Source: Pseudomonadota bacterium (GTDB lineage: Bacteria > Pseudomonadota > Gammaproteobacteria > Burkholderiales > Burkholderiaceae_C). From it: DNA of 27,169 bases. The translations under genes were made by a program, and so were the position numbers. This document shows, in pieces, positions 831 to 27,169 of this stretch; position 1 is the stretch's first letter, and every line of letters starts with the position of its first letter. Under the pieces are notes generated by a model, which was given only the letters and a program-made list of their open reading frames with translations, was not told where the DNA came from and searched no databases. The stretch lies in the NCBI GenBank assembly GCA_041178825.1, contig JBEGUP010000001.1, positions 1 to 27,169 of the forward strand, given 5' to 3'.

Positions 831-2549
831 TTACAAAACGACGCCCGGATTGCAGTCTAACCCAAGTAGTTTCGGGTTATACAGTTTGACAGGTGCAATA
901 GTCTTTTTATCTTTTAGATAAGTTTCAACAACTTCCCAAGCTGGTGGCCCTGCATTTTTACTAGCTTCTTGCACAGGCGCCCAACCTGCAACTTTGTATA
1001 TTTTGCCGGCATCCATCAACTGACCACCAAATCGCATGTCGCTGATGCGTGAGCCAGCTTTACCAGTTGGATTGCATGTGTAAGTCATACCCCCAGTACG
1101 CACCATATCACCGCCTTGTTGGTAATACGGATCGGGGTTAAATAGATTGTCGCAAACATCTTCCAAGATAGTTTTAATAGCTTCACCACTCAAATCAGAC
1201 ACTGTCGTCCATGGGTAGGTGATCGCTGTTTGATCCATTACATGCTCACGCGTGATGGCTTGACCTGATAATAATGATGTTCCCCAACGGAAGCCAGGCG
1301 AGAAAGCAATTTGAGCACCACGTACGTTGATCAAGGCGTCGGTAATCAACTGGTCAAACGTGCCATTGAAGTTGCCACGCCGGTACAACACGCCTTCAGT
1401 TACTGCTAGCTTTTCAGTCAATTTCGAAAGATACGGGGCTCTAACCTTCTCAATCAATGTCGACATCTCTTTGTCTGCTGGCAAAAAATTAGCAAAAATG
1501 GGGAGGAGCTTGTAATTGATGTTGACAACTTTTTTGTCACGAACATCTAAGTCAAGCACACCTAAAAATTTGCCGTTACTGCCAGCATTGGTCACTAACG
1601 TTTGACCACCAGCATTTTTGACCATGGTTGGTACAGGCACGCCATCATGCGTATGACCGCCTAAGATGACATCAATACCGGTTACACGTGACGCCATTTT
1701 CAAGTCAACATCCATACCGTTGTGCGATAACAAAACTACTGCTTGCGCACCTTTAGCACGGGCTTCGGTGACGTATTTTTGCATCTGCTCATCTTGAATG
1801 CCAAATGTCCAATTGGGAACTTGCCAACTGGGGTTTGCAATCGGGGTGTAAGGAAAAGCTTGACCAACGATAGCAACCGTTACACCATTCATTTCTTTGA
1901 GCACATACGGCTTAAAGACTGGGTCTTCAAAGTCGCGGGTTTTGACGTTTTGCGCAACAAAATCAATCTTGCCGGCAAAATCTTTTTCGATGATTTCCAT
2001 CATCCGCTTTTCGCCGTAGGTGAACTCCCAATGCGCTGTCATGACATTGACGCCCAACAACTTGCAAGCATCAACCATGTCTTGCGCATTCGTCCACAAG
2101 CTTGTTGCACTGCCCTGCCAAGTGTCGCCACCGTCAAGCAGCAAAGCACCCGGTCGGCTGCCACGCAACTGCTTAACTAAAGTAGATAAGTGGGCAAAGC
2201 CTCCCACTTTGCCGTAGTGTCTGGCAGCGCGCTCGAAATCCAGATAGGTGTGCGCATGCGCATTAGCACTCCCCGCCTTCAACCCCGCATATTTCAGCAA
2301 ATGCTCTCCAACCAAATGCGGCACATTGCCAGTCATCCCCGCAATCCCAATATTGACATTGGGTTCACGAAAATAAATAGGCAACAACTGTGCATGACAA
2401 TCTGTCATGTGCAATAAATGAACATTACCTGTTTTGGGAACGTTGTAAAGCTGATCTGCCTCTTTCGCGCTGGCCTCACGCCCTAGAGGAAAACCAGCGA
2501 CAACGGCTGCTGTTAAAACGGATGTAAATTCACGGCGCGATAGATTCAT
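831..2549 (-). CDS. soxB: Thiosulfohydrolase SoxB
   Basis: Tat motif SRREF; 5'-nucleotidase-family motifs HMTDCHAQL, LLDGGDTWQG, MTAHWEF, LSHNG, ILGGHTH and YRRGNFNGT; sox context. Confidence 0.97.
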   Translation of the reverse strand: MNLSRREFTSVLTAAVVAGFPLGREASAKEADQLYNVPKTGNVHLLHMTDCHAQLLPIYFREPNVNIGIAGMTGNVPHLVGEHLLKYAGLKAGSANAHAHTYLDFERAARHYGKVGGFAHLSTLVKQLRGSRPGALLLDGGDTWQGSATSLWTNAQDMVDACKLLGVNVMTAHWEFTYGEKRMMEIIEKDFAGKIDFVAQNVKTRDFEDPVFKPYVLKEMNGVTVAIVGQAFPYTPIANPSWQVPNWTFGIQDEQMQKYVTEARAKGAQAVVLLSHNGMDVDLKMASRVTGIDVILGGHTHDGVPVPTMVKNAGGQTLVTNAGSNGKFLGVLDLDVRDKKVVNINYKLLPIFANFLPADKEMSTLIEKVRAPYLSKLTEKLAVTEGVLYRRGNFNGTFDQLITDALINVRGAQIAFSPGFRWGTSLLSGQAITREHVMDQTAITYPWTTVSDLSGEAIKTILEDVCDNLFNPDPYYQQGGDMVRTGGMTYTCNPTGKAGSRISDMRFGGQLMDAGKIYKVAGWAPVQEASKNAGPPAWEVVETYLKDKKTIAPVKLYNPKLLGLDCNPGVVL

Positions 2550-2585: not shown

Positions 2586-3281
2586 TTACTTATTCACAGG
2601 AGACTGGGGATCCAACAAAAGCGCCATCACATGTTTAACTTGTTGTTCGGTCAAAATGCCAGCATCACCAAACCTAGGCATATTGCTACACAAGTTTACG
2701 GAATGTGTATTCCAAATCCGTGCCCATGTGTATTTGACGATAGCTTCTGAATCTTTAGAAGCAGCATCTTTAACGCCACGAATCGTGCCGTATTTCAACA
2801 GCGACGGTCCTTGATTTCCGAAACTAATTTCAGTGGGCGTCAACTGGTGACATGCATAGCAATTTGCACCATTGGGAGCACCTGCGACATCGCTGAATTG
2901 CAATCCACGTCCGTTTTGGGCAATTTTTTCACCTTCTTTCCAATCGCCGATATATTTCCCATCTTCAGGATACGGGATAGCAGCGTAAATGGCTTGCTCC
3001 ATCTTCTCACGTGTAGCTTTTGGCACTTCTACACCACTTGAAAGCGATTCAGAACAGACTTTTTGAATCTCTGTTTGATCAAGCCGATCAAGCTTAGCTA
3101 GACCCCGCTCAGCAAAGCTTGCTTTGATGGAGGCAAGCACTTCTGCGGCACTTGGCTTTTGCATTGTGGTTGATGCACAACTTGCAAGCAAAGCAATACC
3201 TGTCATTAAAGTAGATAATTTTGCTATTCTTTTAATAGCTGAATAGGCAACAAATACGCTCGTTACACGTTTATTTTTCAT
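2586..3281 (-). CDS. soxX: SoxX monoheme cytochrome c, probable lipoprotein
   Basis: CYACH heme motif, GNQGPSL, SNMPRFG, lipobox LLASC; lies between soxA and soxB. Confidence 0.95.
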   Translation of the reverse strand: MKNKRVTSVFVAYSAIKRIAKLSTLMTGIALLASCASTTMQKPSAAEVLASIKASFAERGLAKLDRLDQTEIQKVCSESLSSGVEVPKATREKMEQAIYAAIPYPEDGKYIGDWKEGEKIAQNGRGLQFSDVAGAPNGANCYACHQLTPTEISFGNQGPSLLKYGTIRGVKDAASKDSEAIVKYTWARIWNTHSVNLCSNMPRFGDAGILTEQQVKHVMALLLDPQSPVNK

Positions 3282-3284
3282 AAA
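3222..3284 (+). repeat. ~63-bp interspersed palindromic element, copy D (encodes the SoxX N-terminus)
   Basis: tgcTATTCTTTTAATAGCtgaatAGGCAACAAATACGCtcgtt; 32/40 ungapped identity (3225-3264) to the copy at 10011-10050. Confidence 0.85.
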
Positions 3285-3310
3285 TGTTCTCAGTATTACG
3301 GGGTTTGAAA

Positions 3311-4150
3311 TTATCTTTTTAGAGCAGGTGCTGCCATTTTTCCACCATTGGCGTTGACCCCCATGAAGGTAATCAAGTCAACCGAAGTTTGGCTCAAATA
3401 CTGGAGTTCAGGAAAACGCTGCTGCCTAAAACAATCGTATAAACGCCATTGCATAGTTCGCACTGCACCTTGGCTTACACGATACGCAGGCCATTGGCTA
3501 AAGGCTGCCTGTGCAGGACCGGGTTTGGTTAAGTTAGGCAAATCTTGTAATCGAATACGCTTACCATCTTCGCTGTGGCAACTAGCGCAGCTAAAGTCAA
3601 ACGGCCCGCCTTTAAAGTAAAACGCTTCCTTGCCTCGCGCGTAAGATGTTTTTTCTGCAATGTGGTTTTGCGGAACATTGATAACCATATCGCGTGATTC
3701 GTCATAGATATACGCGACCAAATCTTCAACAATAGAGGCTTTTTGACCCTCTCTACTGTAAACAGTGCCAGCGCTAAAATCTTTCTTATTTGCACCTTGC
3801 AATGTCACCATACAATGCACCAAGCGACTTTCTAAGTCCATAGTTTGATTAGTATCTGCAAAATACTTTGGCAAAGTGGTCACTGCTCCTTTGACTTTAC
3901 CTGCACCCAAACCTAAATCACATGCTTCCAAGCTTGCATTTTTCGGTCCTCGCTTGGTCTTCCAAAGAACTTCTCCTCTAGCAGCGTTCAGATCAGCCGG
4001 ATTGCCATCTTGCAAACTAGCGCGGTAATCATCAATCGCATCTTTAGCTGATTTTTGCTGTGCATTCGCGACATTACAAACAGCTGTTGCCATGATTAAG
4101 CTGACTACGGCAAGCGGTTTCAGATCTAAAAATCTTTTTTCAAAACTCAT
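3311..4150 (-). CDS. soxA: SoxA (monoheme type)
   Basis: Single CASCH motif, active-site RLYDCFRQ, SLEACD/RLVHCM cysteines, WPAYR. Start set at 4150 because GGAGA SD precedes it; the ORF track starts at 4162. Confidence 0.95.
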   Translation of the reverse strand: MSFEKRFLDLKPLAVVSLIMATAVCNVANAQQKSAKDAIDDYRASLQDGNPADLNAARGEVLWKTKRGPKNASLEACDLGLGAGKVKGAVTTLPKYFADTNQTMDLESRLVHCMVTLQGANKKDFSAGTVYSREGQKASIVEDLVAYIYDESRDMVINVPQNHIAEKTSYARGKEAFYFKGGPFDFSCASCHSEDGKRIRLQDLPNLTKPGPAQAAFSQWPAYRVSQGAVRTMQWRLYDCFRQQRFPELQYLSQTSVDLITFMGVNANGGKMAAPALKR

Positions 4151-4212
4151 TATTGTCTCCATTCGAATTGAATATTTTGTTTGTAGTTTTCCAACCTACG
4201 CACGAATACAAA

Positions 4213-4270: not shown

Positions 4271-4582
4271 TCAGGAAATGGTCGCTTCGTCAGTTCGTTT
4301 GTCGCCAGTGTTATCAACCCAAGAAATCGCAATTTTTTCACCTGCTTTACCGCCTGTAAAAGTGAATTGAATAAACGGATTTTTAGAAACTGCAGGACCC
4401 CATTGGGCACTCATAACAGTTTTACCGTTATGCACAGCACTGATGGTTTGAATAAACAATGCTGGCACGACTTTACCAGCAGCATCTTTACGCAAACCTG
4501 TTTCCATTTCATGGCTAACTAAAACACGTACAGTCACTTTATCGCCAGTTGCAGCGGCACGAATGCGCATTGGATCACTCAT
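4271..4582 (-). CDS. soxZ: Sulfur carrier SoxZ
   Basis: HEMETGLRKD, ALFIQ, WGPAVSKNP, WVDNTG; directly downstream of soxY. Confidence 0.96.
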   Translation of the reverse strand: MSDPMRIRAAATGDKVTVRVLVSHEMETGLRKDAAGKVVPALFIQTISAVHNGKTVMSAQWGPAVSKNPFIQFTFTGGKAGEKIAISWVDNTGDKRTDEATIS

Positions 4583-4639: not shown

Positions 4640-5107
4640 TTATCCGCCACAGCCACCAAGAGTGACTTTGACTTCTTTAACTGCGTAGATAAATTTATCA
4701 CCCACTTTTGCAAGCGCATAAACGTTTGTTGACTGGCCCATCTTGACGTTGGTAGACATGTTTGCGTCTGTACCTGCAATGACATCAAAACCAGCAGTCA
4801 ATGCGGCGGGGTTCTTCTCAACGATCAAACCAAGCCAAGTTGTACCTGCAGCTGCACTTTGTGCGCCCAAGCGCACTACGTTACCGTTTTCCGCAATTTC
4901 TGGTGCGCTCAAAGTCACATCTTTACTCTCAGTAGCTGCGCTTGTGCCTCCCAACGCTTTCACCACATCAGCCAAATTTTTGGCTTCAAAAGCTGCTTTA
5001 TTCCAAGCTGTTTGCGCGGAGGCTATAGCAGGGAATAAACCTACACTTGCTGCTAATCCCAATGCAGCAGCACCAGATGTGCTTTGTACAAATTCACGAC
5101 GTTTCAT
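4640..5107 (-). CDS. soxY: Sulfur carrier SoxY
   Basis: Tat motif KRREF, APEIAENG, C-terminal VKVTLGGCGG swinging arm. Confidence 0.98.
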   Translation of the reverse strand: MKRREFVQSTSGAAALGLAASVGLFPAIASAQTAWNKAAFEAKNLADVVKALGGTSAATESKDVTLSAPEIAENGNVVRLGAQSAAAGTTWLGLIVEKNPAALTAGFDVIAGTDANMSTNVKMGQSTNVYALAKVGDKFIYAVKEVKVTLGGCGG

Positions 5108-5206: not shown

Positions 5207-6319
5207 TTACTTAACAGCACCTTGTGATATCCACAAAGCCACTTTTTTAGCATCCGCATCACTCAAACTTTGTGCGGGCATTGGCATTGAACCGTAAACA
5301 CCTGAACCACCGCTTTTAATTTTGCCCGTTAAATATGCTACAGCATCGGGCTTATTGCCTTGCTTAGCAACGATCTCCTTGAAGGAGGGGCCCACAATTT
5401 TGTTGTCAATGCCGTGGCAAGCAGAACATGCATTTTTACTCAAAATTCCAGAAACATCCGCGCTCTTAAGTGAGCCAGTTGCTTCTGAGGATTTTTCTGC
5501 GGTCTTAGTCACTGGTGCAGGTGTAGCCACCGCCTTTTTAACCTCCGCGCTCGAGTTTGCCGCTGGCTTGGTTGTATCAGCGCCCACTGAGGGTCCGAAA
5601 CCGCGCGTTTGCTCAGCCAAATTACCGTGCGCATTGCGTGCGTGCTCTGGTAACAAGCTAGCCACTTTGGCATCTGTTACACAATTAGCCATGCAACTAG
5701 AACCTTGTGTATCAGGTTTAGCGATGCCACCAAACTCTTTGCCTGGCCACATGGCATGCTTGGTCATCATGCCGTTGCGGTTAGGCAATTTGTTTTGTGT
5801 TTCTGCCATATTTTTATCACTCAAAGTGAAGTTATTTGGCACCACATTGGCGATGTTTAGCAAGTACGCGGTTACAGCATAAACCTCATCTGGCTTTAAC
5901 GATTTAGGCGCCGTCCATGGCATCGCACGGTTGATGTAGTCCCACAGCGTAGACAGTTGCGATACTTTCATCATCGTCGTACGCGTTGGCGTTGCTGCCT
6001 CTGGCATCAAACTAGCTACGCGGCCAGTTTCAACGTCTTTTTTGATGGTGTAACCAACCAAGGCGCTGAAAACTGTGTTGTTTTCACCAAAACTGCCATG
6101 ACAAGACGAGCATTGCGCCTCCCAAACTTTTTCTCCCATTGCCACACTACCTGCACCCTTAGGTAAACCTTTGAAGTCAGGGCGAACGTCAATATCCCAA
6201 GCGGCCACTTCATTAGCTGTAGCTGTACGACCAATGCCCTCAATTTTGCTACCTTGAGCAAAAACAGATAGTGAAGATAACGCTAGGACAGCGGCAGTAA
6301 ATTTACGATAACTGAACAT
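5207..6319 (-). CDS. soxD: SoxD cytochrome c subunit (two heme motifs)
   Basis: WDIDVRPD, CSSCH, WDYINRAMP, second domain CSACH..VGPSF; start overlaps the soxC end by 17 nt. Confidence 0.95.
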   Translation of the reverse strand: MFSYRKFTAAVLALSSLSVFAQGSKIEGIGRTATANEVAAWDIDVRPDFKGLPKGAGSVAMGEKVWEAQCSSCHGSFGENNTVFSALVGYTIKKDVETGRVASLMPEAATPTRTTMMKVSQLSTLWDYINRAMPWTAPKSLKPDEVYAVTAYLLNIANVVPNNFTLSDKNMAETQNKLPNRNGMMTKHAMWPGKEFGGIAKPDTQGSSCMANCVTDAKVASLLPEHARNAHGNLAEQTRGFGPSVGADTTKPAANSSAEVKKAVATPAPVTKTAEKSSEATGSLKSADVSGILSKNACSACHGIDNKIVGPSFKEIVAKQGNKPDAVAYLTGKIKSGGSGVYGSMPMPAQSLSDADAKKVALWISQGAVK

Positions 6320-7634
6320 TTTTCACCTCGCCAGATTCCTGCAACAACCAAGTTTGAATAGAGTTATTGTGATAAATGCTCCGCGTTCCTCGTACTTTTC
6401 TGTTTTCAGCGTATGTTGGCTGCACATGACCTGTTTCATCGGTAGCGCGGCTCATTAGCAATGCTGGCTTGCCGTCCCATGACCAATCCATGTTGAAGCG
6501 CGTCAGACACTTGGACATGACTTGACCCTCTAGTCGAGCTGCTTTCCAATTACGCCCACCATCGACCGATATGTCGACTTTTTTAATCTTTCCGCGACCG
6601 CTCCAAGCAAGTCCAGTTACATTCAAAAAGCCCTTATCGAGCAACACTTGACCTCCACTTGGCGTGGTAATCACAGATTTCACTTCTTGCGTGCTGCTGT
6701 ACTGGCGATGCATGCCACTAGGTAATAAGTCAATGTAGTGAATGGTTTCGTCTTTTGTGCCGTAGGCTTCGTCACCCAACTCGATGCGACGTAAGTACTT
6801 CACCCAGCTCACACCCTGGACACCGGGGACCACCAAGCGCAATGGATAGCCATTTTCTGGACGCAGCATTTCGCCATTCATACCGTAGGCGACCAGCACT
6901 TCATCATTCATGATGAGGCTCATGGGAATCGTACGCGTCATGCTAGACCCGTCGGCACCTTCTGCCAAAACAAACTTACCGCGTTTGAAATCTGCACCGC
7001 ACATTTCAAGCAACAGGCGCAGAGGCACACCCGTAAATTCACTGCAGCTGACCATGCCGTGCGTGTACTGCACCGTCGGTACAGCGGCGTTGCCCCACTC
7101 CATACCCGTATTCGCACCACATTCAATAAAGTGAAAACGACTAACAGATGGCAAACGCATCAAATCATCCATGGTGAAGACCATTGGCTTTTTGAGCATC
7201 TTTTCATCGCTACCATTCACCATCAAACGGTGTTTATCCGGCTCAATATCCCACCAGCCTTGGTGGTGGCGCTCAAAATGCAAACCACTGGGCGTCACAA
7301 TACCAAACAAACCTTGCAAAGGCGCAAAACTAACGCCAGAAGCGCTCACCGCCGTTAAGCCAGGGCTTTCACGGCGCTGTAAGTTTTTTTCGTAAATACT
7401 CGGCACACCATAACCACGAGCTGCAACGCCCTGCCCCAAACCCTTGGTGTGAGCAGGTAGGTTAACGATGTTTGGATCGTCTTTTGAAGACTGCGCACGC
7501 GCAGCAGTTGCACCGGCCATAGCTGCGGCAAACGCACCAGCCATGAAACCTCGTCTACCCGCATAAACCGATTTGATTTGCTCACTACCGAGAAAGCCCT
7601 CGGGAGCGGCTTGAATGAAGCGATTGTTTCTCAT
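6303..7634 (-). CDS. soxC: SoxC molybdopterin sulfane dehydrogenase
   Basis: Tat-like RRGF, TPSGLHFERHH, FIECGAN (Mo-ligating Cys), LRPENGYPLRLVVPG, GLAWSGRG. Confidence 0.97.
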   Translation of the reverse strand: MRNNRFIQAAPEGFLGSEQIKSVYAGRRGFMAGAFAAAMAGATAARAQSSKDDPNIVNLPAHTKGLGQGVAARGYGVPSIYEKNLQRRESPGLTAVSASGVSFAPLQGLFGIVTPSGLHFERHHQGWWDIEPDKHRLMVNGSDEKMLKKPMVFTMDDLMRLPSVSRFHFIECGANTGMEWGNAAVPTVQYTHGMVSCSEFTGVPLRLLLEMCGADFKRGKFVLAEGADGSSMTRTIPMSLIMNDEVLVAYGMNGEMLRPENGYPLRLVVPGVQGVSWVKYLRRIELGDEAYGTKDETIHYIDLLPSGMHRQYSSTQEVKSVITTPSGGQVLLDKGFLNVTGLAWSGRGKIKKVDISVDGGRNWKAARLEGQVMSKCLTRFNMDWSWDGKPALLMSRATDETGHVQPTYAENRKVRGTRSIYHNNSIQTWLLQESGEVKNVQLS

Positions 7635-9891: not shown

Positions 9892-10007
9892 CCTATAGAC
9901 CAGTTTAGTACGAGTGCATTTTGTACGTAAAAACCCTAGAACTGACGTGAATTTACTTACACAAAATTGACAATACAACTTCAACGTGTTGGTTGAAAAT
10001 ATCAATT

Positions 10008-10070
10008 TACTATTATTTTAATAGCTGTTCAGGCAATAAATACGCCGGCTAGAGCCATAAAATGCATAAA
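10008..10070 (+). repeat. ~63-bp element, copy A (intergenic)
   Basis: tacTATTATTTTAATAGCtgttcAGGCAATAAATACGCCGGCTAG; 21/22 identity to 12594-12615 in the core. Confidence 0.9.
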
Positions 10071-10103
10071 AAAATCGGGTGCTTTATACAAGCTACCCGA
10101 TTT
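10068..10103 (-). terminator. Rho-independent terminator of the Bug gene
   Basis: Minus strand AAATCGGGTAGCTT-GTAT-AAAGCACCCGAT followed by T7. Confidence 0.85.
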
Positions 10104-10142
10104 CTGTTTTGCTAACTTAGCAAAATTATTACTGCGCCGCTT

Positions 10143-12506: not shown

Positions 12507-12570
12507 CCGTATTTTGCTGATTTACAGAAAAATTGTCAAGCTAAAACGCCGTGTGTAGAGTGAGTTTTTT

Positions 12571-12633
12571 TGCTATATTTTTAACAGCAATTTAGGCAAT
12601 AAATACGCTGGCTAGGTGCATATTTATCATCTA
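12571..12633 (+). repeat. ~63-bp element, copy B (intergenic)
   Basis: tgcTATATTTTTAACAGCaatttAGGCAATAAATACGCTGGCTAG; 33/40 ungapped identity to copy A. Confidence 0.9.
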
Positions 12634-12653: not shown

Positions 12654-13997
12654 TTAATTGATTTTAAACTTCAAAGCCAGCGCTTTAGAAGCCACGCACT
12701 TGCCCTGCACTTGCCCGCCCTCTACGCCAAAGCGGAAGTGGATGCCTGCGTACAAACGCGACAGCGCTGCCTCATTGGCAGCCGCGCTGAAGTTAGTGAA
12801 GGTACGCGGACCCCAGCCACGGTCGTTGTGGGTGTTGTCAGTGAATGCCGTGTTTGCACCAAAGATTTGATTTAATACACCTGCTGCTGCACTAGATTGA
12901 ATAGAGTGGCCAGAAGGATATTCTGGGAACGGTGGCGTTGGCATCAACGGAGGTACCCAATTGCTGTCAAATGAACCCTGGACATAGCTCACGGGGCGCA
13001 ACACGTTGAGCGCATATTTGGTGGCCCAACCTGCAATAAAAGCATCTGCCATCGCAATATTCAAGCGAGCCAGTGTTTGACCGGCATCAGCCAAGCTGGC
13101 TTTGCGGGTTTTCAGCAAATCGTTGGCTATAAACAGCCAGTGGCCAGCTGGCGTGGGTGTTTTACCTGGATCATCCGCCCAATACAAGGCAAATTGGCGT
13201 TGCTCTTGGGTGGCTGCCTTGCTGATGGTGTAAACCTCTTGCGCACTTTTGTAAAAAACAGAGCTGGCGTCCTCCGAATACTCAGGCGGCGGCGGCGCTG
13301 GGCAGTCTTTTACCGATTTCAAAGCAAAGGGGCGATTTTCACCCCAATACGGCAACAGCGGTTTGGCAAACGCCGGCGGTGTGGCCGTCCAAAGCCCTGC
13401 CCCACTGGGCGGCACGTAGTTGGCACGGCTGCGACGCAGCGGTCCCCAAGCTTCATGGCCGCCGTCGGTACGTGCCCAGGTCATGATCGCCATGGCCATG
13501 AGCTTGCCGAAGGAAGTAGAACGGTTGATGATTTCGGGGGTGTAGGTGTTGGGGTCAAAGTCTTGACCATATTTCAACGGCAACAAGCGCTCAAGCTGGT
13601 CAATACGGCCTTTGTTTTCCGCCGTAGCGTTGCTGAACATCATGCGCGTCATGGTCGCCATTGAGGCATTTGCCACCGTCGGCCAGTGCAAAGACTCATC
13701 GGGTTGCGCCGCAGGTAAGGAGTTGAGCTCATTCAACTGCCCAGCCATGCTGGTATAGCCAGGCATACCTGGCACGATGGACTCATACAACGCCAACCCC
13801 AAATACCCAAAAGCACGCGATGCTACAGGCGGGCTAAAACCAGGGGTTTGCTGGGTTAGCGACAGCGCTAGGGACATCCACTCGGTCGCGACAGCGTTGC
13901 TATAGGTGTCTGCTGGGCGAGTTAAATTTTGCGATTGCGCTATTGAAAATGAAGCAAATAACGTAATTAAAACGCCGGATAAAAAACGTTTTATCAT
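12654..13997 (-). CDS. Vanadium-dependent haloperoxidase / PAP2-superfamily enzyme with Sec signal peptide
   Basis: K-x6-RP (KYALNVLRP), PPFPEYPSGHS, SRLYAGIH, FSPPVASR, FWAD-like YWADD. Start set at 13997 (MIKRFLSG), 1 nt after the upstream stop; the track start at 14129 overlaps the upstream gene. Confidence 0.88.
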   Translation of the reverse strand: MIKRFLSGVLITLFASFSIAQSQNLTRPADTYSNAVATEWMSLALSLTQQTPGFSPPVASRAFGYLGLALYESIVPGMPGYTSMAGQLNELNSLPAAQPDESLHWPTVANASMATMTRMMFSNATAENKGRIDQLERLLPLKYGQDFDPNTYTPEIINRSTSFGKLMAMAIMTWARTDGGHEAWGPLRRSRANYVPPSGAGLWTATPPAFAKPLLPYWGENRPFALKSVKDCPAPPPPEYSEDASSVFYKSAQEVYTISKAATQEQRQFALYWADDPGKTPTPAGHWLFIANDLLKTRKASLADAGQTLARLNIAMADAFIAGWATKYALNVLRPVSYVQGSFDSNWVPPLMPTPPFPEYPSGHSIQSSAAAGVLNQIFGANTAFTDNTHNDRGWGPRTFTNFSAAANEAALSRLYAGIHFRFGVEGGQVQGKCVASKALALKFKIN

Positions 13998-14000
13998 ATT
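13938..14000 (+). repeat. Degenerate copy F of the ~63-bp element, coinciding with the haloperoxidase start and signal peptide
   Basis: 36/63 ungapped identity to copy B; ATG at the same offset as in copies A, B and D; peptide LSGVLIT versus LAGVFIA in copy A. Confidence 0.5.
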
Positions 14001-15690
14001 ATTGAGCTTTCCAAGGTGAAACACCAGACGTTTTATCAATGGTGAAAAATGCATCAGCTGCGACCGTTTGCCACGGGCCAGCTTCAGAAAACGGCCATTG
14101 CACGCGGACTTTGACCGTGGTTGCAGCACCTAAGCCGAAATGCATCCAACCTGCATGCCCGCTGGCGTGACCGCCACCGACGGTGAGTTCTTGGCGGATG
14201 ATGCTTTGCTTGCCCAAGTGCTTCATGGCATCGCCCAAGTCAACCTCAACCCACGCGCCGACAGCGTCTTTGTTGCTGCCGTTTTGCTTCAGTTTGAGTT
14301 GCAGCCAATGCCCTGCGGTACCCATTTGCATTGGCTTGTCCACCGTGCCAGCACCCAGATTGCGCCACAGCTGCGCTTTGTCCCAGCGGTTCACCACGAC
14401 CATGTCGAGCAAGCCATCACCGTTCAAATCTGCCAACATGCCACCACGGCCACGCCTAACGCTGGCAATATTTGAGAGCTGACCTGACTCAAAAAATCGA
14501 CCATCAACTTGCTGCAGCAAAAGATTATTCGGGTCTAAAGCGGCAAAGTCTGGCATCGTGGAGATATTGCCTTTGACGATAAAGATATCTGCCAAGCCGT
14601 CATGGTTCACATCTGCGAATTGGGAATGCCAAGCGGTAGAAGGATGAATATCACCCCCAACATAGGGACGATGTGCGGTGACGCCGCGTTTGTAAGCCAT
14701 ATCAACATACTCAGGCTTATCGGCCTTGCCAGTGGCACTGAGTTGCAGCTTTTGTAGTTTGTTGTCCGCCATGCTGGTCAAATACAGCTCTGGGTAGCCG
14801 TCGCCATCGATGTCTTGGCTAGCAATGCCCATACCCCAAATTTGCATAGGCTTCCAGCCCTGCGCTTCTGTGTACAAACTAGGTTGCTGGCCAGTGGCAA
14901 TTTTCCAAAGCTGCTCTTGCCCACCTTTGTAAAATTCGCGGTCATTGCTGACGCGTAAATCTGGCGTGCCTTTACGCCCCCAATCTGAAAACAACATCGA
15001 CAAAGCGCAATACGACGGCTCTAGTTTGATCGGTGCAGCAAAGCCGCTGCCGGCGCTGTTCGGGCGCAACAAAACGCCCGGTGTGCAGCTACCCCAAGGA
15101 AATTCTGGTTTGGTGCGGTCAATATAAGTGCCTATCGCAAACGTCGGCCATTTTTGACCCCGCTCCCAAGTCGCAGAAAACGCCGTGTGCCATTCGTTAC
15201 CTGTTTTGACGCCCCATTTGCTGGTGGCACGCTCAAATTTGCAAGCGCCTAAACCACGGAAGACTTCAACCTCACCCACACGCAGCACCACCAAATCGGT
15301 GTTGCCATCGCTGTCAACATCCAAAGGGTACGCGCCTATGGCGTTGGTCAATTCCAAACCAGTGCGATCTTCTTGCAGCTTGATCGCACCGCCACGGGTA
15401 CTTTTGTTGCGGTAAAACTTGGCTTTGTTCACGCCAGCAGTGACATAGATTTCGGGTAAACCATCAGCATCACAGTCAAACGTGGCAACACCGCCACCCA
15501 CCATGAATTCGTCATCCCCTTCAAAGCGGCTTTGCAAGCCCGCGCTGTCGGTTTCTTCAACAAACTTGGGAATATTTGGCGTAGCAGGAACTGGCAGAAT
15601 AGCTAGTACGGCATTCTGTGCTGAAACTGGTGTCATAGCCGTCTGCAGGGCTAGGGAACTTAGCAGAATAGTTTTTAATAAATTAGACAT
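13999..15690 (-). CDS. CRTAC1-family protein (FG-GAP/DxDxDG repeats + C-terminal ASPIC/UnbV domain), exported
   Basis: Six Ca-binding-type repeats (DCDADG, DVDSDG, DWGRKG, DIDGDG, DVNHDG, DLNGDG); C-terminal HWLQLKL..NKDAVGA..GGGHASG..MHFGLG..VQWP; signal peptide ending VSA-Q. Confidence 0.9.
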   Translation of the reverse strand: MSNLLKTILLSSLALQTAMTPVSAQNAVLAILPVPATPNIPKFVEETDSAGLQSRFEGDDEFMVGGGVATFDCDADGLPEIYVTAGVNKAKFYRNKSTRGGAIKLQEDRTGLELTNAIGAYPLDVDSDGNTDLVVLRVGEVEVFRGLGACKFERATSKWGVKTGNEWHTAFSATWERGQKWPTFAIGTYIDRTKPEFPWGSCTPGVLLRPNSAGSGFAAPIKLEPSYCALSMLFSDWGRKGTPDLRVSNDREFYKGGQEQLWKIATGQQPSLYTEAQGWKPMQIWGMGIASQDIDGDGYPELYLTSMADNKLQKLQLSATGKADKPEYVDMAYKRGVTAHRPYVGGDIHPSTAWHSQFADVNHDGLADIFIVKGNISTMPDFAALDPNNLLLQQVDGRFFESGQLSNIASVRRGRGGMLADLNGDGLLDMVVVNRWDKAQLWRNLGAGTVDKPMQMGTAGHWLQLKLKQNGSNKDAVGAWVEVDLGDAMKHLGKQSIIRQELTVGGGHASGHAGWMHFGLGAATTVKVRVQWPFSEAGPWQTVAADAFFTIDKTSGVSPWKAQ

Positions 15691-16681
15691 TCACCCAAGC
15701 TCCGGTTTTTTCTGAGGCAAACAAGGCATCAATGACCTTCATATTCAAAATCGCGTCTTCAACGCCATAGGGCAAACTAATTTCGCCGCGTACGACTTTT
15801 GAAAACGCATCACCCTGCAAGCCATACATATTGCAAGCTGGCATGTTGTGCTTTTGCATAGACGAGCCGTTCAAAGTACTGCCATCATCCACAAAATAAT
15901 CAGTTTCACCACCCAACGGTGCATTGAACGGAATTTGAACTTCAATACGCTTTTTAGTTCCCACAACTTGCACGCGCTGGTGTGGTACTGATTGCGTTGA
16001 AACGGTGAAATCTAAACGTTTGCCATCGCCAAAATCAAGCAAAGCGCTGACGGTGCGATCCACTTTGAAGTCTGGATCGCGGTCAACCAAGGCGATCACG
16101 CGTTTGGGTTCAGCATCAAACAAAAACCGCCCAATCACAATCGGGTAGCAGCCGATATCGTACAGCGCACCGCCGCCGATTTCATACTTGTTGCGGATGT
16201 TGTTGGTGTCGCGATTGAAATACGAAAAGAACGCTTGCACGGTTCGCACATCACCCAATTCACCACTGCGCACACGTTCGCGCACTTGTAGCCACTGCGG
16301 GTGAAAGCGCACCATGAAAGCTTCCATGATATGCACTTTGTCCGCCACTTCACGCAGCTGCGCTGCTTCGTTGGCATTGATGGCAAACGGCTTTTCGCAC
16401 AAAACGTGTTTACCAGCACGAGCTGCCTGCAGCGTTAACGGTACGTGCAGATCGTTCGGCAAAGGGTTGTAAATGGCTTCAATCTCACGGTCAGCCAACA
16501 AGGCCTCATACGAACCATAAGCCTTAGGAATGCCCAGCTTAGCTGCCCATTCATCTGCTTTGCCAGGCGCACGCGAGGCGATGGCTCGCACATCGCAAAA
16601 CTCGCTTTGCTGCATAGCAGGGATAACTTTTTCCCAACCAATTTTGGCGGTACTAAGAATACCCCATACTACTTTTTTCAT
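15683..16681 (-). CDS. Gfo/Idh/MocA-family oxidoreductase (possible sugar dehydrogenase)
   Basis: WGILSTAKI, YNPLPNDLH, KHVLCEKP, EAFMVRFHP, GGGALYDIGCY. Confidence 0.92.
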   Translation of the reverse strand: MKKVVWGILSTAKIGWEKVIPAMQQSEFCDVRAIASRAPGKADEWAAKLGIPKAYGSYEALLADREIEAIYNPLPNDLHVPLTLQAARAGKHVLCEKPFAINANEAAQLREVADKVHIMEAFMVRFHPQWLQVRERVRSGELGDVRTVQAFFSYFNRDTNNIRNKYEIGGGALYDIGCYPIVIGRFLFDAEPKRVIALVDRDPDFKVDRTVSALLDFGDGKRLDFTVSTQSVPHQRVQVVGTKKRIEVQIPFNAPLGGETDYFVDDGSTLNGSSMQKHNMPACNMYGLQGDAFSKVVRGEISLPYGVEDAILNMKVIDALFASEKTGAWVNV

Positions 16682-16729
16682 AGCTATAGACCCAATAAAT
16701 ACGAGAACTACGTACCAATTTAATCAATA
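16667..16729 (+). repeat. ~63-bp element, copy E (overlaps the Gfo start codon and RBS region)
   Basis: tacTACTTTTTTCATAGCtatagACCCAATAAATACGagaact; 28/40 ungapped identity to copy A. Confidence 0.7.
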
Positions 16730-23012: not shown

Positions 23013-24032
23013 TTATTTACAAACAGCAACTTTCGCGCCGTCGATACCTTTGCACAAAGCATCTTTCTTGATGTAACCGGCTTTCAAAACAACATCCAAG
23101 TTGTCTTTAGTCACTGGGATTGGCTTCAAAAAGATAGACTTCATAGTCATCTTCTTAGGGCCACCTGCCCAGTCAGCAGCACCAGTTACAGCCTTGCCAG
23201 CGCCCAACTCAACAGCAGCTTTCGCTGCAGCTGTGCCGAGGTCAGCAGAGTTTTTCCAGACTGACACAGTTTGTGTACCAGCTGCAACACGGTTCAAAGC
23301 AGCGTGGTCGCCGTCTTGACCAGACACTGGAATACCTTGCAAGCCCTTAGCTGTCAAAGCAGCCACTACACCGCCGGCCATGCCGTCGTTTTGTGCCACA
23401 ACAGCGTCAACCTTGTTGGCGTTCTTAGTCAGGATCTGCTCCATGTTTTTCTGAGCATTTTGTGGATTCCAGCCAGATGTGAACTCTTCGCCAACAATCT
23501 TCACGTCACCCTTTTTGATAGCGTCAGCCAACACTTCAGCTTGGCCTTCGCGCAAGAACGCAGCATTGTTATCACCTGGGTCGCCCTTGATGATGGCGTA
23601 GTTGCCTTTTGGCTTGGCCTTCAAGATTTCACGAGCAGTCATACGGCCCACTTCTTTGTTGTCAAAAGTGATGTAAGTTGTGCCTGCTGCTTCAAACAAA
23701 CGGTCATACGCGATGACTGGAATTTTTTGCTGTGCAGCTTTGTTGACCGCTGGCAAGATAGCGTCTTTGTCTTTTGCCAAGATGATCAAGACTTTTGCGC
23801 CTTTGGTGATCAAACCGTCGATGTCAGCCAATTGCTTTTCAGCAGAAGCGCCAGCGTCAGAATAGATGTATTTCGCGCCTGATTTTGCCAATTCAGCCTT
23901 GATAGCTGCTTCGTCAGTCTTCCAACGCTCTTCTTGGTAAGCGTCAAAGCTCACGCCGACAACCAATTGTGCGAAAGATGAACCAGCTGCCATGGCCAAA
24001 GCCAAAGCGGTCAGAGTACGTTTAAATTGCAT
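23013..24032 (-). CDS. xylF: Xylose ABC transporter periplasmic binding protein
   Basis: QEERWKTD, VIAYDRL, FDNKEVG, KGDPGDNNA, QNDGMA, SGQDGD, QTVSVWK. Confidence 0.95.
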   Translation of the reverse strand: MQFKRTLTALALAMAAGSSFAQLVVGVSFDAYQEERWKTDEAAIKAELAKSGAKYIYSDAGASAEKQLADIDGLITKGAKVLIILAKDKDAILPAVNKAAQQKIPVIAYDRLFEAAGTTYITFDNKEVGRMTAREILKAKPKGNYAIIKGDPGDNNAAFLREGQAEVLADAIKKGDVKIVGEEFTSGWNPQNAQKNMEQILTKNANKVDAVVAQNDGMAGGVVAALTAKGLQGIPVSGQDGDHAALNRVAAGTQTVSVWKNSADLGTAAAKAAVELGAGKAVTGAADWAGGPKKMTMKSIFLKPIPVTKDNLDVVLKAGYIKKDALCKGIDGAKVAVCK

Positions 24033-24177: not shown

Positions 24178-24211
24178 GATATGGTTACTTAAAAGAATTT
24201 ATAGTCGATGT

Positions 24212-25189
24212 ATGTTTATCCATGAAAAAATTGATATCGTTTACTTATGGGTAGATGGCAATGACCCTGTTTGGCGGAAAAAAAGGGCAAGTTCCTTGGG
24301 GCAATTGAATGCCTACAACCGAAACAGCATCGCTAAATACGGCAATGTGGAAGGCCGATTTCGGGACAACGACGAACTGCGCTACAGTTTGCGCGCGCTG
24401 GAACGCTACTTCCCCGATTGCGGCCATGTTTACATCGTCACCGATGCGCAAAGGCCTGCCTGGCTGCAAAATTCAACGCAAATTTCTATCATTGACCATA
24501 AAGAACTGATCCCGGCTAGCAAACTACCGACCTTTGACTCCGCCAACATTGAGTCCTACATTCACCGCATCCCCAACTTGTCAGAGCAGTATTTTTACCT
24601 CAACGACGATGTTTTCTTCGGCTCTCCCGTTGATTTAAGCCATTGGTTTAGCAAAGATGGCATTTGTGTGGGATGGTCAGACGATTTACCGGTAAGCAAT
24701 CAAGGTTTACAACCCGACGCCACCGCACTAGAAAATGCCTGCCGTTTGTCGATTCAGTGGTTGAGAACGCATGAAAATTCGAATTTCAGCCCTTTCAAAC
24801 ACACTTACCGCACCTTTGCCCATGCGCCTAGGCCCATGTTGAAATCAATGCTGATTGCGCTAGAAACTGAAGCTCCCGATTTGTTTGAATCCGTACGCTC
24901 AACCGTATTTCGCGCCTGGGACAAACCCACTATCGTCTCTGATTTTGTACTGCGCTGGGCGTTGGCTAACGGCAAGGCCACTTTGAGAGACTACGCACAT
25001 GTCTACTTGTCCACGGGTGATGTAGAAAATGCAGCGCAACTGAACAGCTTGATAGCAGCAGACGGCCTGCTTGATTTCTTTTGCATCAACGACACCACTG
25101 ACGATGCAGACGATCTAGACCCACGATTGGCGATGGTGCAGGGAACACTGCAAACCATGTTTCCAAAAGTCTCTCGTTTTGAGAGTTAA
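24212..25189 (+). CDS. Stealth-family hexose-1-phosphate transferase
   Basis: CR1 IDIVYLWVDGND; CR2 RFRDNDELRYSLR...PTFDSANIE...YLNDDVFF; CR3 HAPRPMLKS; CR4 FFCIND. Confidence 0.93.
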   Translation: MFIHEKIDIVYLWVDGNDPVWRKKRASSLGQLNAYNRNSIAKYGNVEGRFRDNDELRYSLRALERYFPDCGHVYIVTDAQRPAWLQNSTQISIIDHKELIPASKLPTFDSANIESYIHRIPNLSEQYFYLNDDVFFGSPVDLSHWFSKDGICVGWSDDLPVSNQGLQPDATALENACRLSIQWLRTHENSNFSPFKHTYRTFAHAPRPMLKSMLIALETEAPDLFESVRSTVFRAWDKPTIVSDFVLRWALANGKATLRDYAHVYLSTGDVENAAQLNSLIAADGLLDFFCINDTTDDADDLDPRLAMVQGTLQTMFPKVSRFES

Positions 25190-26219: not shown

Positions 26220-27169
26220 ATGCAAAAAATTCAGTCTTCACATTCAACCGCCCCCTTCCTCCCGCAAATCACGCTTTACCGCAGTTGGCTAAGCGCGCAG
26301 CGTGGCTTGAAGTTTGACTCTTACGACGCGCTTTGGCAGTGGTCAACGACTGATTTAGACGCGTTTTGGCAGAGTATTTGGGATTATTTTGACCTGAAAT
26401 CGTCCACGCCCTACTCCGCCGTATGTGACCGTTCTGCCAAAGTTGATGGTATTTCGCGGATGATCGATGTGAAATGGTTCACTGGCGCGACGGGCAACTA
26501 CGCGCAGCAGGTGTTTCGGCATGTTGAAGCCGCAGATTCTGTAGGTTTCCCAGCCATCATTAGCCACAATGAGAAAAGCTTGGGCAAGCAGCCAGCAAAA
26601 GAAATGACTTGGCCGCAGCTCAAACAACAAGTCGCCTCCCTCGCCCTGCACCTGCAAGCACAGGGTGTGCAACCGGGGGACAGGGTTGCGGCGTATTTGC
26701 CGAACATTCCAGAGGCGATGGTGGCGTTTTTGGCGACGGTGAGCATTGGCGGCGTGTGGAGCATTTGTGCACCGGATATGGGGACGAACGCCGTTTTAGA
26801 CCGCTTCAAACAAATTGAACCCAAGGTGCTGATTGCCTGCGACGGTGTTACTTTTGGCGGCAAAGACTTTGACCGCCTAGCCGTGATCGCCGAGCTATGC
26901 GCCGCACTGCCCAGCGTAAAGCATGTGATTTTGCAAGACAATTTGGGGACTTTACAGCCTTACACTCAAGCAACTTCAAATGCTAAAAACGCTATAAATA
27001 TAATAGCTTCTCAGGCAGTATTTACAAAGGCTACATGTCAAAATGATGCTAAAACTGCAGCTTTTGAGCCACTTTGGTTGCCGTTTGACCACCCACTGTG
27101 GATTGTCTATTCCAGCGGCACGACAGGACTACCCAAACCGATTGTTCACAGCCACGGCGGCATCGTCAT
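26220..27169 (+). CDS. Acetoacetate-CoA ligase (partial; runs off the right edge)
   Basis: Not in the ORF track; hand translation is open from ATG at 26220 to the end: YDALWQWSTTDLDAFWQSIWDYF, GDRVAAYLPNIPE, PDMGTNAVLDRFKQIEPKVLI, PFDHPLWIVYSSGTTGLPKPIVHSHGG. Confidence 0.93.
   Translation, partial: MQKIQSSHSTAPFLPQITLYRSWLSAQRGLKFDSYDALWQWSTTDLDAFWQSIWDYFDLKSSTPYSAVCDRSAKVDGISRMIDVKWFTGATGNYAQQVFRHVEAADSVGFPAIISHNEKSLGKQPAKEMTWPQLKQQVASLALHLQAQGVQPGDRVAAYLPNIPEAMVAFLATVSIGGVWSICAPDMGTNAVLDRFKQIEPKVLIACDGVTFGGKDFDRLAVIAELCAALPSVKHVILQDNLGTLQPYTQATSNAKNAINIIASQAVFTKATCQNDAKTAAFEPLWLPFDHPLWIVYSSGTTGLPKPIVHSHGGIV
26990..27052 (+). repeat. ~63-bp element, copy C (in frame inside the acetoacetate-CoA ligase)
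   Basis: cgcTATAAATATAATAGCttctcAGGCAGTATTTACaaaGGCTA; 29/40 ungapped identity to copy A; translates AINIIASQAVFTKATCQND. Confidence 0.8.

Follow-up and report, generated by a model that had tools for sequence, protein, structure and literature searches.

The soxX gene of a Polaromonas-like bacterium carries, in frame within the region that encodes its export signal, a true copy of the commonest dispersed hairpin repeat of its genome. The gene lies in a stretch of 27,169 nucleotides (positions 1 to 27,169 of contig JBEGUP010000001.1; hereafter the window) from a 2.17-Mb metagenome-assembled genome (MAG) that is 72% complete (genome G000). We posit that this copy probably stems from an old in-frame insertion of a ~60-nt element, similar to repetitive extragenic palindromic (REP) sequences, into the n-region of the SoxX lipoprotein signal. 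The features on which this proposal is built are the following.

2586 to 3281, minus strand: soxX coding sequence (TIGR04485), 231 amino acids, a c-type cytochrome with a predicted 35-residue lipoprotein signal peptide.
3287 to 3291, minus strand: Shine-Dalgarno-like GAGAA, 6 nt before the ATG.
3279 to 3281, minus strand: ATG, the predicted soxX start, first start codon after the upstream in-frame stop and outside the conserved core of the repeat.
3217 to 3276, minus strand: in-frame copy of the element found by nhmmer (profile positions 15-74), comprising soxX codons 3-21 and adjoining bases.
3243 to 3245, minus strand: codon 13, TAT (Tyr), at the position of the family's consensus stop.
3223 to 3239, minus strand: second hairpin, GCTATT-AAAAG-AATAGC, with a predicted 6-bp stem, coding for A15 I16 K17 R18 I19 A20.
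3177 to 3218, minus strand: h-region LSTLMTGIALLAS and lipobox Cys35 (LAS-C), not derived from the element.
3204 to 3206, minus strand: internal ATG (M26), rejected as a start.

In a search with a profile built from the genome's own copies, window positions 3216-3279 (minus strand) align with profile positions 12-75 and score 44.2 bits (E 2.1e-11), near the median of 46.2 bits for the 456 matches of the family. An initial annotation of the window, made from the sequence alone, had described the 5' end of soxX as a copy of the repeat at 47/63 identity; the copy is real, and the ungapped identity of positions 3222-3284 is 45/63 to each of the intergenic copies at 10008 and 12571, compared with a maximum of 36/63 and a mean of 32 for 200 shuffled queries over the whole window. 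The blocks that define the family, GCTAY-N5-7-RTAGC and GCGTATTTRTTGCC, stand at their fixed spacing in soxX, where GCGTATTTGTTGCC and GCTATT-AAAAG-AATAGC are both present with no indels. No columns of the family are better conserved than the GCTAY...RTAGC arms, which most SoxX orthologues retain, even some that fall below nhmmer detection. Translated in the soxX frame, codons 3-21 read NKRVTSVFVAYSAIKRIAK, and K17, R18 and K21, which adjoin the h-region, are all encoded by the element. The same annotation had noted that the element's stop is changed to TAT in soxX, and this holds: at codon 13 the family has TAA in 145 and TGA in 103 of the 362 anchored copies (248 together) and TAT in five, and the orthologues have TAT, TAC, CCT, TCT, TCA, AAA, AAT, CAA, CGA or GGA, with a stop in none. 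A further copy proposed for a haloperoxidase signal peptide at 13938-14000 could not be confirmed, given that its identity to the soxX copy (32/63) is at the level of chance and its score against the profile is about 3 bits.

At E <= 0.01 the 2.17-Mb assembly contains 456 members of the family, and repeat finding lists five copies within the window. Each of the 18 genomes searched from the same genus has 85-608 pattern matches, and each of 22 from other genera has 0-1; reversed-pattern controls are near zero (0-1 matches). The conserved core of ~60 nt is composed of two small hairpins: the first consists of AAATATGC, a 9-nt loop with an NTAG motif and then GCGTATTT, and the second of GCTAT, a 7-nt loop and ATAGC. 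Translated in the soxX frame, the consensus gives ..N-M-P-L-A-G-V-F-I-A-stop-A-A-I-K-x-I-A-N. Two intergenic copies in the window serve as references.

10003 to 10062, minus strand: intergenic copy, 63.2 bits, E 2.6e-17, a candidate for the intergenic sequence with which the initial annotation had aligned soxX.
12566 to 12625, minus strand: intergenic copy with a well-formed first hairpin, 53.6 bits (fold -19.8 kcal/mol, z = -4.8).

Many intergenic copies, these two among them, hold a mini open reading frame (ORF) that begins at the consensus ATG (present in 91/362) and runs for nine codons, MPLAGVFIA-stop, preceded 8 nt upstream by a weakly conserved AAGGG; 12 further copies have a 12-codon version that starts 9 nt earlier. 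Between species at ~80% DNA identity nearly all element sites are orthologous, so the family is largely sedentary.

Several features of the family point to a system of the type formed by REPs and REP-associated tyrosine transposases (RAYTs). Each of the five genomes searched (G000, G008, G015, G016 and G017) has a single match to PF01797, and the Y1-transposase gene of G000 barely passes the cut-off of NF047646 (REP_Tyr_transpos; 80.2 bits, cut-off 80). This RAYT-type gene occupies positions 89-784 of contig C24 (locus L170) and is followed by an element at 795-854; in G000, G008, G015 and G016 (L170-L173) an element copy starts 2-11 nt after the RAYT stop, and G008 has a second copy 50 nt upstream of the gene. 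No flanking copy was found at the more divergent RAYT gene of G017. Because the four flanked loci are orthologous, they count in effect as one observation, and elements often lie at the 3' ends of genes in any case. The terminal GTAG/CGTC tag of REPs is absent: NTAG lies in the loop of hairpin 1, and of 362 copies 80 have GTAG and 87 have CTAG. We therefore refer to the family as REP-like and not as a proven REP, given that GTAG is neither terminal nor dominant and that the RAYT flanking is effectively a single observation. Rfam has no match at gathering score over the whole window, and a search of the intergenic copy (9950-10120) with an E-value threshold returned only noise (E 0.2-0.8). The betaproteobacterial repeat element (BRE) reported in Polaromonas sp. 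JS666 is ~90 bp, 69% G+C and tandem (PMC3110155); this identity was rejected by description, the present family being A/T-rich, 60 nt long and dispersed.

The product of soxX scores 80.5 bits against TIGR04485 (thiosulf_SoxX; cut-off 61) and has CYACH as its haem-binding CxxCH motif, both as expected of SoxX. Its N-terminus consists of MKNKRVTSVFVAYSAIKRIAK, then LSTLMTGIALLAS, then Cys35; the h-region and lipobox directly adjoin the element, as the initial annotation had observed. By pattern match only, the segment has the attributes of a signal for signal peptidase II (SPase II): a charged n-region (K2, K4, R5, K17, R18 and K21), an h-region and a lipobox of the form [LVI][ASTVI][GAS]C. A lipobox Cys was found by pattern in 69 of 80 fetched loci, from both the element-bearing and the sister clade, and occurs in all 70 rows of the SoxX tree described below. 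The 13 residues that precede Cys35 equal the h-region length of outgroup proteins such as MKTK-YLIALSVSVLIAG-C. On the basis of this pattern, SoxX would be cleaved and lipidated at Cys35.

The mechanism that we envisage is simple. The ATG at 3281, behind GAGAA, would drive initiation, and this ATG and the codon that follows would most likely be the original soxX start. Codons 3-21 would be the element, whose A-rich loop and tail of hairpin 2 would provide the Lys and Arg codons that adjoin the original h-region, and the stop that most copies have in this frame would have been replaced by a sense codon. The reading frame would have been kept because the element is 60 nt long, the mature protein would be unchanged because SPase II, judging from the lipobox, would remove the whole segment, and the insertion may have been tolerated because the signal-peptide segment is discarded. 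Selection would need only to keep the frame open, the positive charge and a hydrophobic core. In the window lineage the element would lengthen the n-region; in certain other lineages the original h-region would have been shortened and the hydrophobic stretch encoded by the element would now be the h-region, a take-over that the sequences suggest only outside the window lineage (L106 and L118). The initial annotation had the repeat recruited to supply both the start and the n-region of SoxX. The n-region part of this claim stands, in that K17, R18 and K21 are encoded by the element; its start codon is unsupported as a contribution of the repeat, and "recruited to supply" overstates the case, because it is simpler to suppose that the element entered, long ago and in frame, a cleavable signal peptide that was already there, and that it was tolerated since this segment is discarded.

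The distribution of the element among SoxX relatives suggests that the insertion is ancient and predates the radiation of a large SoxX clade of Comamonadaceae. Our tree has 70 rows, composed of a 56-member clade (Comamonadaceae) and a 14-member sister clade; the relatives are labelled Polaromonas, with some Variovorax or Comamonadaceae MAGs and one isolate. The element is detected in 40 of the 56 members of the former and in 0 of the 14 members of the latter, and a 39-member subclade (support 99/95) accounts for 34 of the detectable copies. All 40 agree in site, orientation and frame, including 11 orthologues from the same genus with E-values from 6e-15 to 7e-8, and 0 of 345 shuffled 5' regions gave any match to the profile. 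Scores of the orthologous copies grade from 51 down to 2 bits, and the members of the clade in which no copy is detected still have long n-regions, often together with the GCTAY...RTAGC arms. Where the element is present, most signal peptides measure 28-40 residues (24-25 in L106 and L118), and outgroup signal peptides have 18-25 residues and begin MKTK, MKKT or MNKK. Four genomes of the same genus with a SoxX from the other clade (G002, G004, G012 and G017) contain hundreds of copies of the repeat and have short, element-free SoxX signals. Nor was any genome found that lacks the repeat and has the same SoxX N-terminus, an observation that the initial annotation would have taken as contrary to its claim: the 5/5 genomes tested with a SoxX of the element-bearing type carry the family. 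The simplest reading of the tree is one old gain followed by decay, and the single event is what we infer from it.

Whether the start codon came with the element is a separate matter, and we are inclined to regard the soxX ATG as ancestral, with the element inserted just behind it. The initial annotation had included the start codon in the repeat. This part fails, in that an ATG at the triplet homologous to the soxX start occurs in 17 of 362 copies and the column has an information content of about zero; 12 of these 17 are unremarkable copies between genes that hold a 12-codon mini-ORF, among them both intact window copies (10008 and 12571). Conservation of the family starts ~4 bases before the consensus ATG, which corresponds to codon 4 of soxX (AAA in the window, AAG in most orthologues), and the soxX ATG is 9 bases further upstream; ATG 3281 is not part of the conserved element. 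Element-free SoxX sequences begin ATG AAA or ATG AAT (MK..) after a short, similar purine-rich spacer, and the spacer of the element-bearing L040 resembles that of the element-free L041 before ATG AA. We consider the ATG more likely ancestral given both the lack of a family consensus at this position and the fact that element-free SoxX proteins also begin MK. If codons 3-20 are removed from group-B orthologues, the remainder is MKKITTCVSAVAVLASC, which would be a canonical 17-residue lipoprotein signal of the length of outgroup signals such as MKTKYLIALSVSVLIAGC.

Several observations weigh against a single old insertion behind an ancestral ATG, and we set them out together with the two alternatives that draw on them. 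The first group concerns the start codon. ATG is enriched ~3-fold at offsets -11 to -9 of the element (23, 13 and 17 copies, compared with ~5 elsewhere); one other gene, C202 (MRNWPLAG...), starts at exactly the same element offset as soxX; and C139, a weaker case at this offset, overlaps a conserved domain. The enrichment and C202 suggest that the element could have brought the ATG. In addition, when 258 kb from three relatives were searched for empty sites by mapping the flanks of 61 copies onto G000, no clean pair of empty and filled sites was recovered that would fix the ends of the element and place the ATG inside or outside it. Almost all sites are common to the species compared, and complex rearrangements underlie the few differences in length (window 24188-24222 and the soxC/soxD junction in G007), which reveal neither a boundary nor a target duplication. 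At the latter junction (G007 contig C7, ~23100-23250; L068/L069) an extra 54 nt with a weak match to the element (19 bits) lengthens the signal-peptide region of soxD; this stretch is absent from the window (6235-6303) and from G015.

The start-codon data would fit a scenario in which the element landed in the soxA-soxX spacer or at the gene start with an ATG of its own, such that the start and the whole n-region are derived from the repeat and the original start was lost; the ATG at the same offset in both intact intergenic window copies and the agreement of the copy at 12571 with soxX at 11 of the first 15 bases are also in favor. We regard this scenario as rather doubtful. The ATG is exceptional within the family, as described above, and the 12 intergenic copies that have it stop after 12 codons; element-free SoxX proteins also begin ATG AAA behind a similar Shine-Dalgarno-bearing spacer of similar length; no relic of a second start and n-region is seen downstream of the element; and removal of codons 3-20 leaves a canonical signal peptide. 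The stop of soxA (TAA, 3311-3313) is 29 nt upstream of the soxX ATG, and among orthologues the spacer is 15-30 nt with the element and mostly 11-35 nt, up to ~44 nt, without it.

The second group concerns the tree. The element-bearing orthologues do not form one clade: well-supported branches require six or more changes (at least 6-9 label changes in all), which calls for decay, loss, repeated insertion or gene conversion. Group-A and group-B copies stay near the family consensus (36-51 bits, on a par with intergenic copies), yet their mature SoxX sequences are only 65% identical, a combination not predicted by a purely neutral single old insertion. Finally, soxX copies share the subfamily variants of their own genomes, with GCG CGA GCA where the genomic consensus is TTGCGCGAGCAGC. 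These three observations, the 35% divergence of the mature proteins among them, speak for independent insertions into one hot spot in several SoxX lineages, or for gene conversion that refreshes the soxX copy from copies elsewhere in the genome. We nevertheless consider repeated events unlikely, because site, orientation and frame are identical in 40/40 cases, progressively decayed intermediates (2-13 bits) fill the tree as vertical decay predicts, and a family whose sites are nearly all orthologous at ~80% DNA identity is largely sedentary. Parallel AT-to-GC drift could yield shared subfamily changes without conversion; drift of this kind or concerted evolution could explain either the sharing of subfamily variants or the closeness to consensus. 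A variant subfamily is also present in G041-G043 and G045 (reached via L094, L081, L087 and L108), where TTGCGCGAGCAGCTAT replaces TTGCCTAAGCAGCTAT; the variant has no stop in the soxX frame, and the soxX copies of these genomes share it (..ARAAI..), as would result from a parallel drift of all copies towards G+C or from concerted evolution. Another MAG, G018, has two full soxX genes (L034 and L053; 85% and 65% identical to that of the window), both with the element, in addition to two soxX fragments (L055 and L056), consistent with either two sox clusters or a mixed bin (listed contamination 3%).

Returning to the insertion into an existing signal, we find the translation of the element-bearing 5' end of soxX supported by comparison of the orthologues, and the start is almost certainly ATG 3281. 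In a survey of 33 element-bearing orthologues (at least 9 bits to the profile), the homologous ATG is present in 33/33, and in six (L074, L080, L082, L092, L094 and L124) no other start-type codon occurs from the upstream stop to the h-region. A purine-rich motif (GAGA, GAGGA, AAGG or GGGAG) lies 5-9 nt before it in most orthologues and is weaker in some (e.g. GGACA in L073). Every orthologue is open from this ATG to the lipobox Cys, compared with 96 of 362 copies of the family in this frame; among the close (group-A) orthologues the sole length change is one of 12 nt in L035, and further indels in more distant orthologues are of whole codons. In L106 and L118 the element would have to be translated, because no hydrophobic core precedes the lipobox there other than the stretches that it encodes, VLIAGAAITLIA and VFIAGAAIAFIA. 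The start is also the one called in NCBI and JGI records of this sequence or its orthologues (WP_213443454.1, a version with 30 residues from the isolate labelled Variovorax sp. PCZ-1, and MEQ1534509.1), which reflects agreement of gene callers only.

Within soxX the in-frame start-type codons before Cys35 are ATG 3206-3204, the only internal ATG, and TTG at codon 31. The internal ATG was rejected as a start: it is present only in the window and in L032, the closest relative, and would yield MTGIALLASC, with no charged n-region and no Shine-Dalgarno motif. On both counts the initial annotation, which had singled out this codon as the one internal ATG and noted the missing n-region, is borne out, and 3206 is excluded as a conserved start. 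The related proposal that translation begins there or at an ATT or ATA inside the hairpin, leaving the element in the 5' untranslated region as at most an RNA hairpin, is highly improbable. It would fit the intergenic location of most family copies, many of them between co-directional genes; initiation at codon 19 (ATA) would produce the compact signal M-AK-LSTLMTGIALLAS-C; and published surveys caution that many N-terminal REPs may be extragenic (PMC3733652). It conflicts, however, with the lack of conservation of ATG 3206, the absence of a Shine-Dalgarno motif before any internal candidate, a frame that is open in every orthologue despite the consensus stop and whose indels are multiples of three, the h-region of L106 and L118 that only the element encodes, and the six orthologues in which the upstream ATG is the sole start. 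The predicted RNA fold of the soxX copy (-11.9 kcal/mol, z = -0.7) is weak and no better than shuffles, for which reason we reject RNA structure as the function of the copy; by eye, hairpin 2 is mixed among orthologues, with some C-G compensations and several C-A mismatches. That the likeness reflects nothing but the composition of an A/T-rich signal-peptide region is refuted for the window's copy: signal peptides are indeed rich in Ala, Ile, Val and Lys, as are the translated frames of the element, and the lowest scores among orthologues (2-6 bits) would not suffice by themselves, but the genome-wide E-value of 2e-11, the 45/63 identity against a shuffle maximum of 36, and the lack of matches in 345 shuffled 5' regions and in 14 sister-clade signal peptides are incompatible with chance.

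SoxX is not the only protein that contains a translated copy. We classified the gene context of 421 copies by hexamer coding-potential calls, which are crude, and found 110 in frame inside ORFs, 51 N-terminal, 27 C-terminal and 231 intergenic, with 44 copies in N-terminal coding regions; an earlier classification by longest ORF, with 224 copies inside genes, was discarded because of over-extended starts and spurious ORFs. Copies that overlap coding sequence make up ~45% by these crude calls, and the family is not essentially extragenic in the manner expected of REPs. The soxX gene appears to be one of several dozen genes with an N-terminal copy, about half of which encode exported proteins. 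Among 20 N-terminal cases (within L150-L169), picked for a signal-like appearance and thus not a random sample, ~15 belong to typically periplasmic or envelope families, with the Pfam domain starting after the stretch encoded by the element: DsbD, SLT_2 (MltB-like), PCuAC, LolA, SCO1, SIMPL, MlaA, DUF1775, TctC (two), cyclophilin, RseB and a periplasmic binding protein. The element forms part of the signal peptide in these cases and is mostly read in reverse (K.FAIxxIAAQAVNTPA); the forward frame used by soxX (..PLAGVFIAxAAIKxIAK) and one reverse frame (K.FAIxxIAAQAVNTPA..) both encode hydrophobic stretches flanked by Lys.

Two further copies in the window lie within a gene or at its start.

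26985 to 27044, minus strand: element in frame within an acetoacetate-CoA ligase gene on the plus strand.
16667 to 16728, minus strand: degenerate copy, 14 bits (~30 bits in G015 and G008).

Compared with PDB 4wd1, the first adds ~21 residues that immediately precede the AMP-binding YSSGTTG motif, and the insert is found at the same site in G015, G008 and G007. A length divisible by three and a preserved frame are seen in the 60-nt core, in the open frame of soxX and in the ligase insert. In the second, an arm of hairpin 2 reads GCT ATG AAA, and its ATG is the start of a Gfo/Idh/MocA-like ORF (15683-16681); the same in-element start offset occurs in four other genes (rlmH-like, recX-like, hydrolase and permease).

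The general pattern may be that in-frame copies last where they encode a disposable signal peptide, soxX being one instance. One could go beyond tolerance and view the family as a recurrent builder of export signals in this lineage, in which copies at gene starts would repeatedly have extended, replaced or taken over the n- or h-regions of periplasmic proteins, and selection for coding competence or concerted evolution could help keep intragenic copies near the consensus. SoxX spans such a series: in the window the element is part of a long n-region, and in L106 and L118 it provides the only h-region. We are cautious in speculating along these lines and think a role of this kind improbable.

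The remaining sox genes of the window form a cluster with soxX on the minus strand, with the transcription order soxC, soxD-like, soxY, soxZ, soxA, soxX and soxB.

6303 to 7634, minus strand: soxC, above the NCBIfam cut-off.
5207 to 6319, minus strand: soxD-like dihaem cytochrome gene.
4640 to 5107, minus strand: soxY, above the NCBIfam cut-off.
4271 to 4582, minus strand: soxZ, above the NCBIfam cut-off.
3311 to 4162, minus strand: soxA (TIGR04484, 234 bits), above the NCBIfam cut-off.
831 to 2549, minus strand: soxB, above the NCBIfam cut-off.

The soxX case provides an unusually well-documented natural series of a REP-type repeat absorbed into a gene. It suggests that a cleavable signal peptide is a cheap place for a charged, hydrophobic insert of 20 residues and that the role of such an insert can change over time, from a spare n-region to a working hydrophobic core. 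It reveals no new mechanism or regulatory device in sulfur oxidation; the insert marks one sox-cluster lineage. In practice, gene-start callers and signal predictors will meet lipoprotein signals of 30-40 residues in cryosphere and freshwater Comamonadaceae, which should not be trimmed to a downstream ATG, and repeat masking in these genomes would strip real coding sequence.

An event of this kind has been published before, for intragenic REPs, for the palindromic elements of Rickettsia (RPEs) and for YPO1552 of Yersinia, and is not new in kind; what is new here is its depth, with dozens of orthologues and an apparent change of role from n-region to h-region. In the survey of GTAG/CGTC REPs by Di Nocera, De Gregorio and Rocco (2013; PMC3733652), intragenic REPs are catalogued, many of them at the N-termini of ORFs. 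Both families are short, high-copy palindromes that are mostly intergenic, also occur wholly within ORFs, where they encode ~20-30 residues, and go with a RAYT-type transposase (PMC3733652). They differ in that NTAG of the present family is non-terminal, in the loop of hairpin 1, with GTAG in only 80/362 copies, and in that the overlap with coding sequence (~45% by crude calls) is very high. The survey cautioned that N-terminal copies may be extragenic (PMC3733652), whereas translation of the soxX copy is backed by dozens of orthologues. In REPIN-RAYT systems the REPINs are described as extragenic (Bertels and Rainey; PMC8049555). The present system resembles these in having one RAYT gene per genome (5/5), hundreds of lineage-restricted, sedentary and vertically inherited copies, and a copy that abuts the RAYT gene; unlike a REPIN, its unit is no obvious inverted REP doublet and consists of two different small hairpins, and the RAYT gene is flanked on its 3' side only in most genomes and on neither side in G017.

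In Yersinia, according to Delihas (2007; reviewed in PMC2229807), the YPAL/RU-2 miniature inverted-repeat transposable element forms part of the predicted signal peptide of YPO1552. That element is likewise described there as a small mobile palindrome with a hydrophobic ORF, fused in frame such that the signal peptide is partly encoded by the repeat; it is 168 bp long and lies in a hypothetical new exported protein, reported as conserved only in Y. pestis and Y. pseudotuberculosis (PMC2229807). Here, by contrast, the element is 60 nt long and the recipient is a well-defined enzyme subunit, SoxX, that would have had a signal peptide before the insertion and is kept across many species. The classic example of palindromes inserted in frame is that of the RPEs (Ogata et al. 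2000, as cited in PMC10969869 and PMC2229807). They share with the present family a length that is a multiple of three, in-frame residence in many unrelated genes, old age, orthologous sites and a tolerance that is put down to their location in permissive parts of proteins (PMC10969869); they are ~100-150 bp long and are reported mainly from surface loops of cytoplasmic enzymes (PMC10969869, PMC2229807), and the likeness is one of description. The element in soxX differs from RPEs in being 60 nt long, in belonging to free-living Comamonadaceae, in its apparent association with a RAYT, and in being conspicuous in signal peptides.

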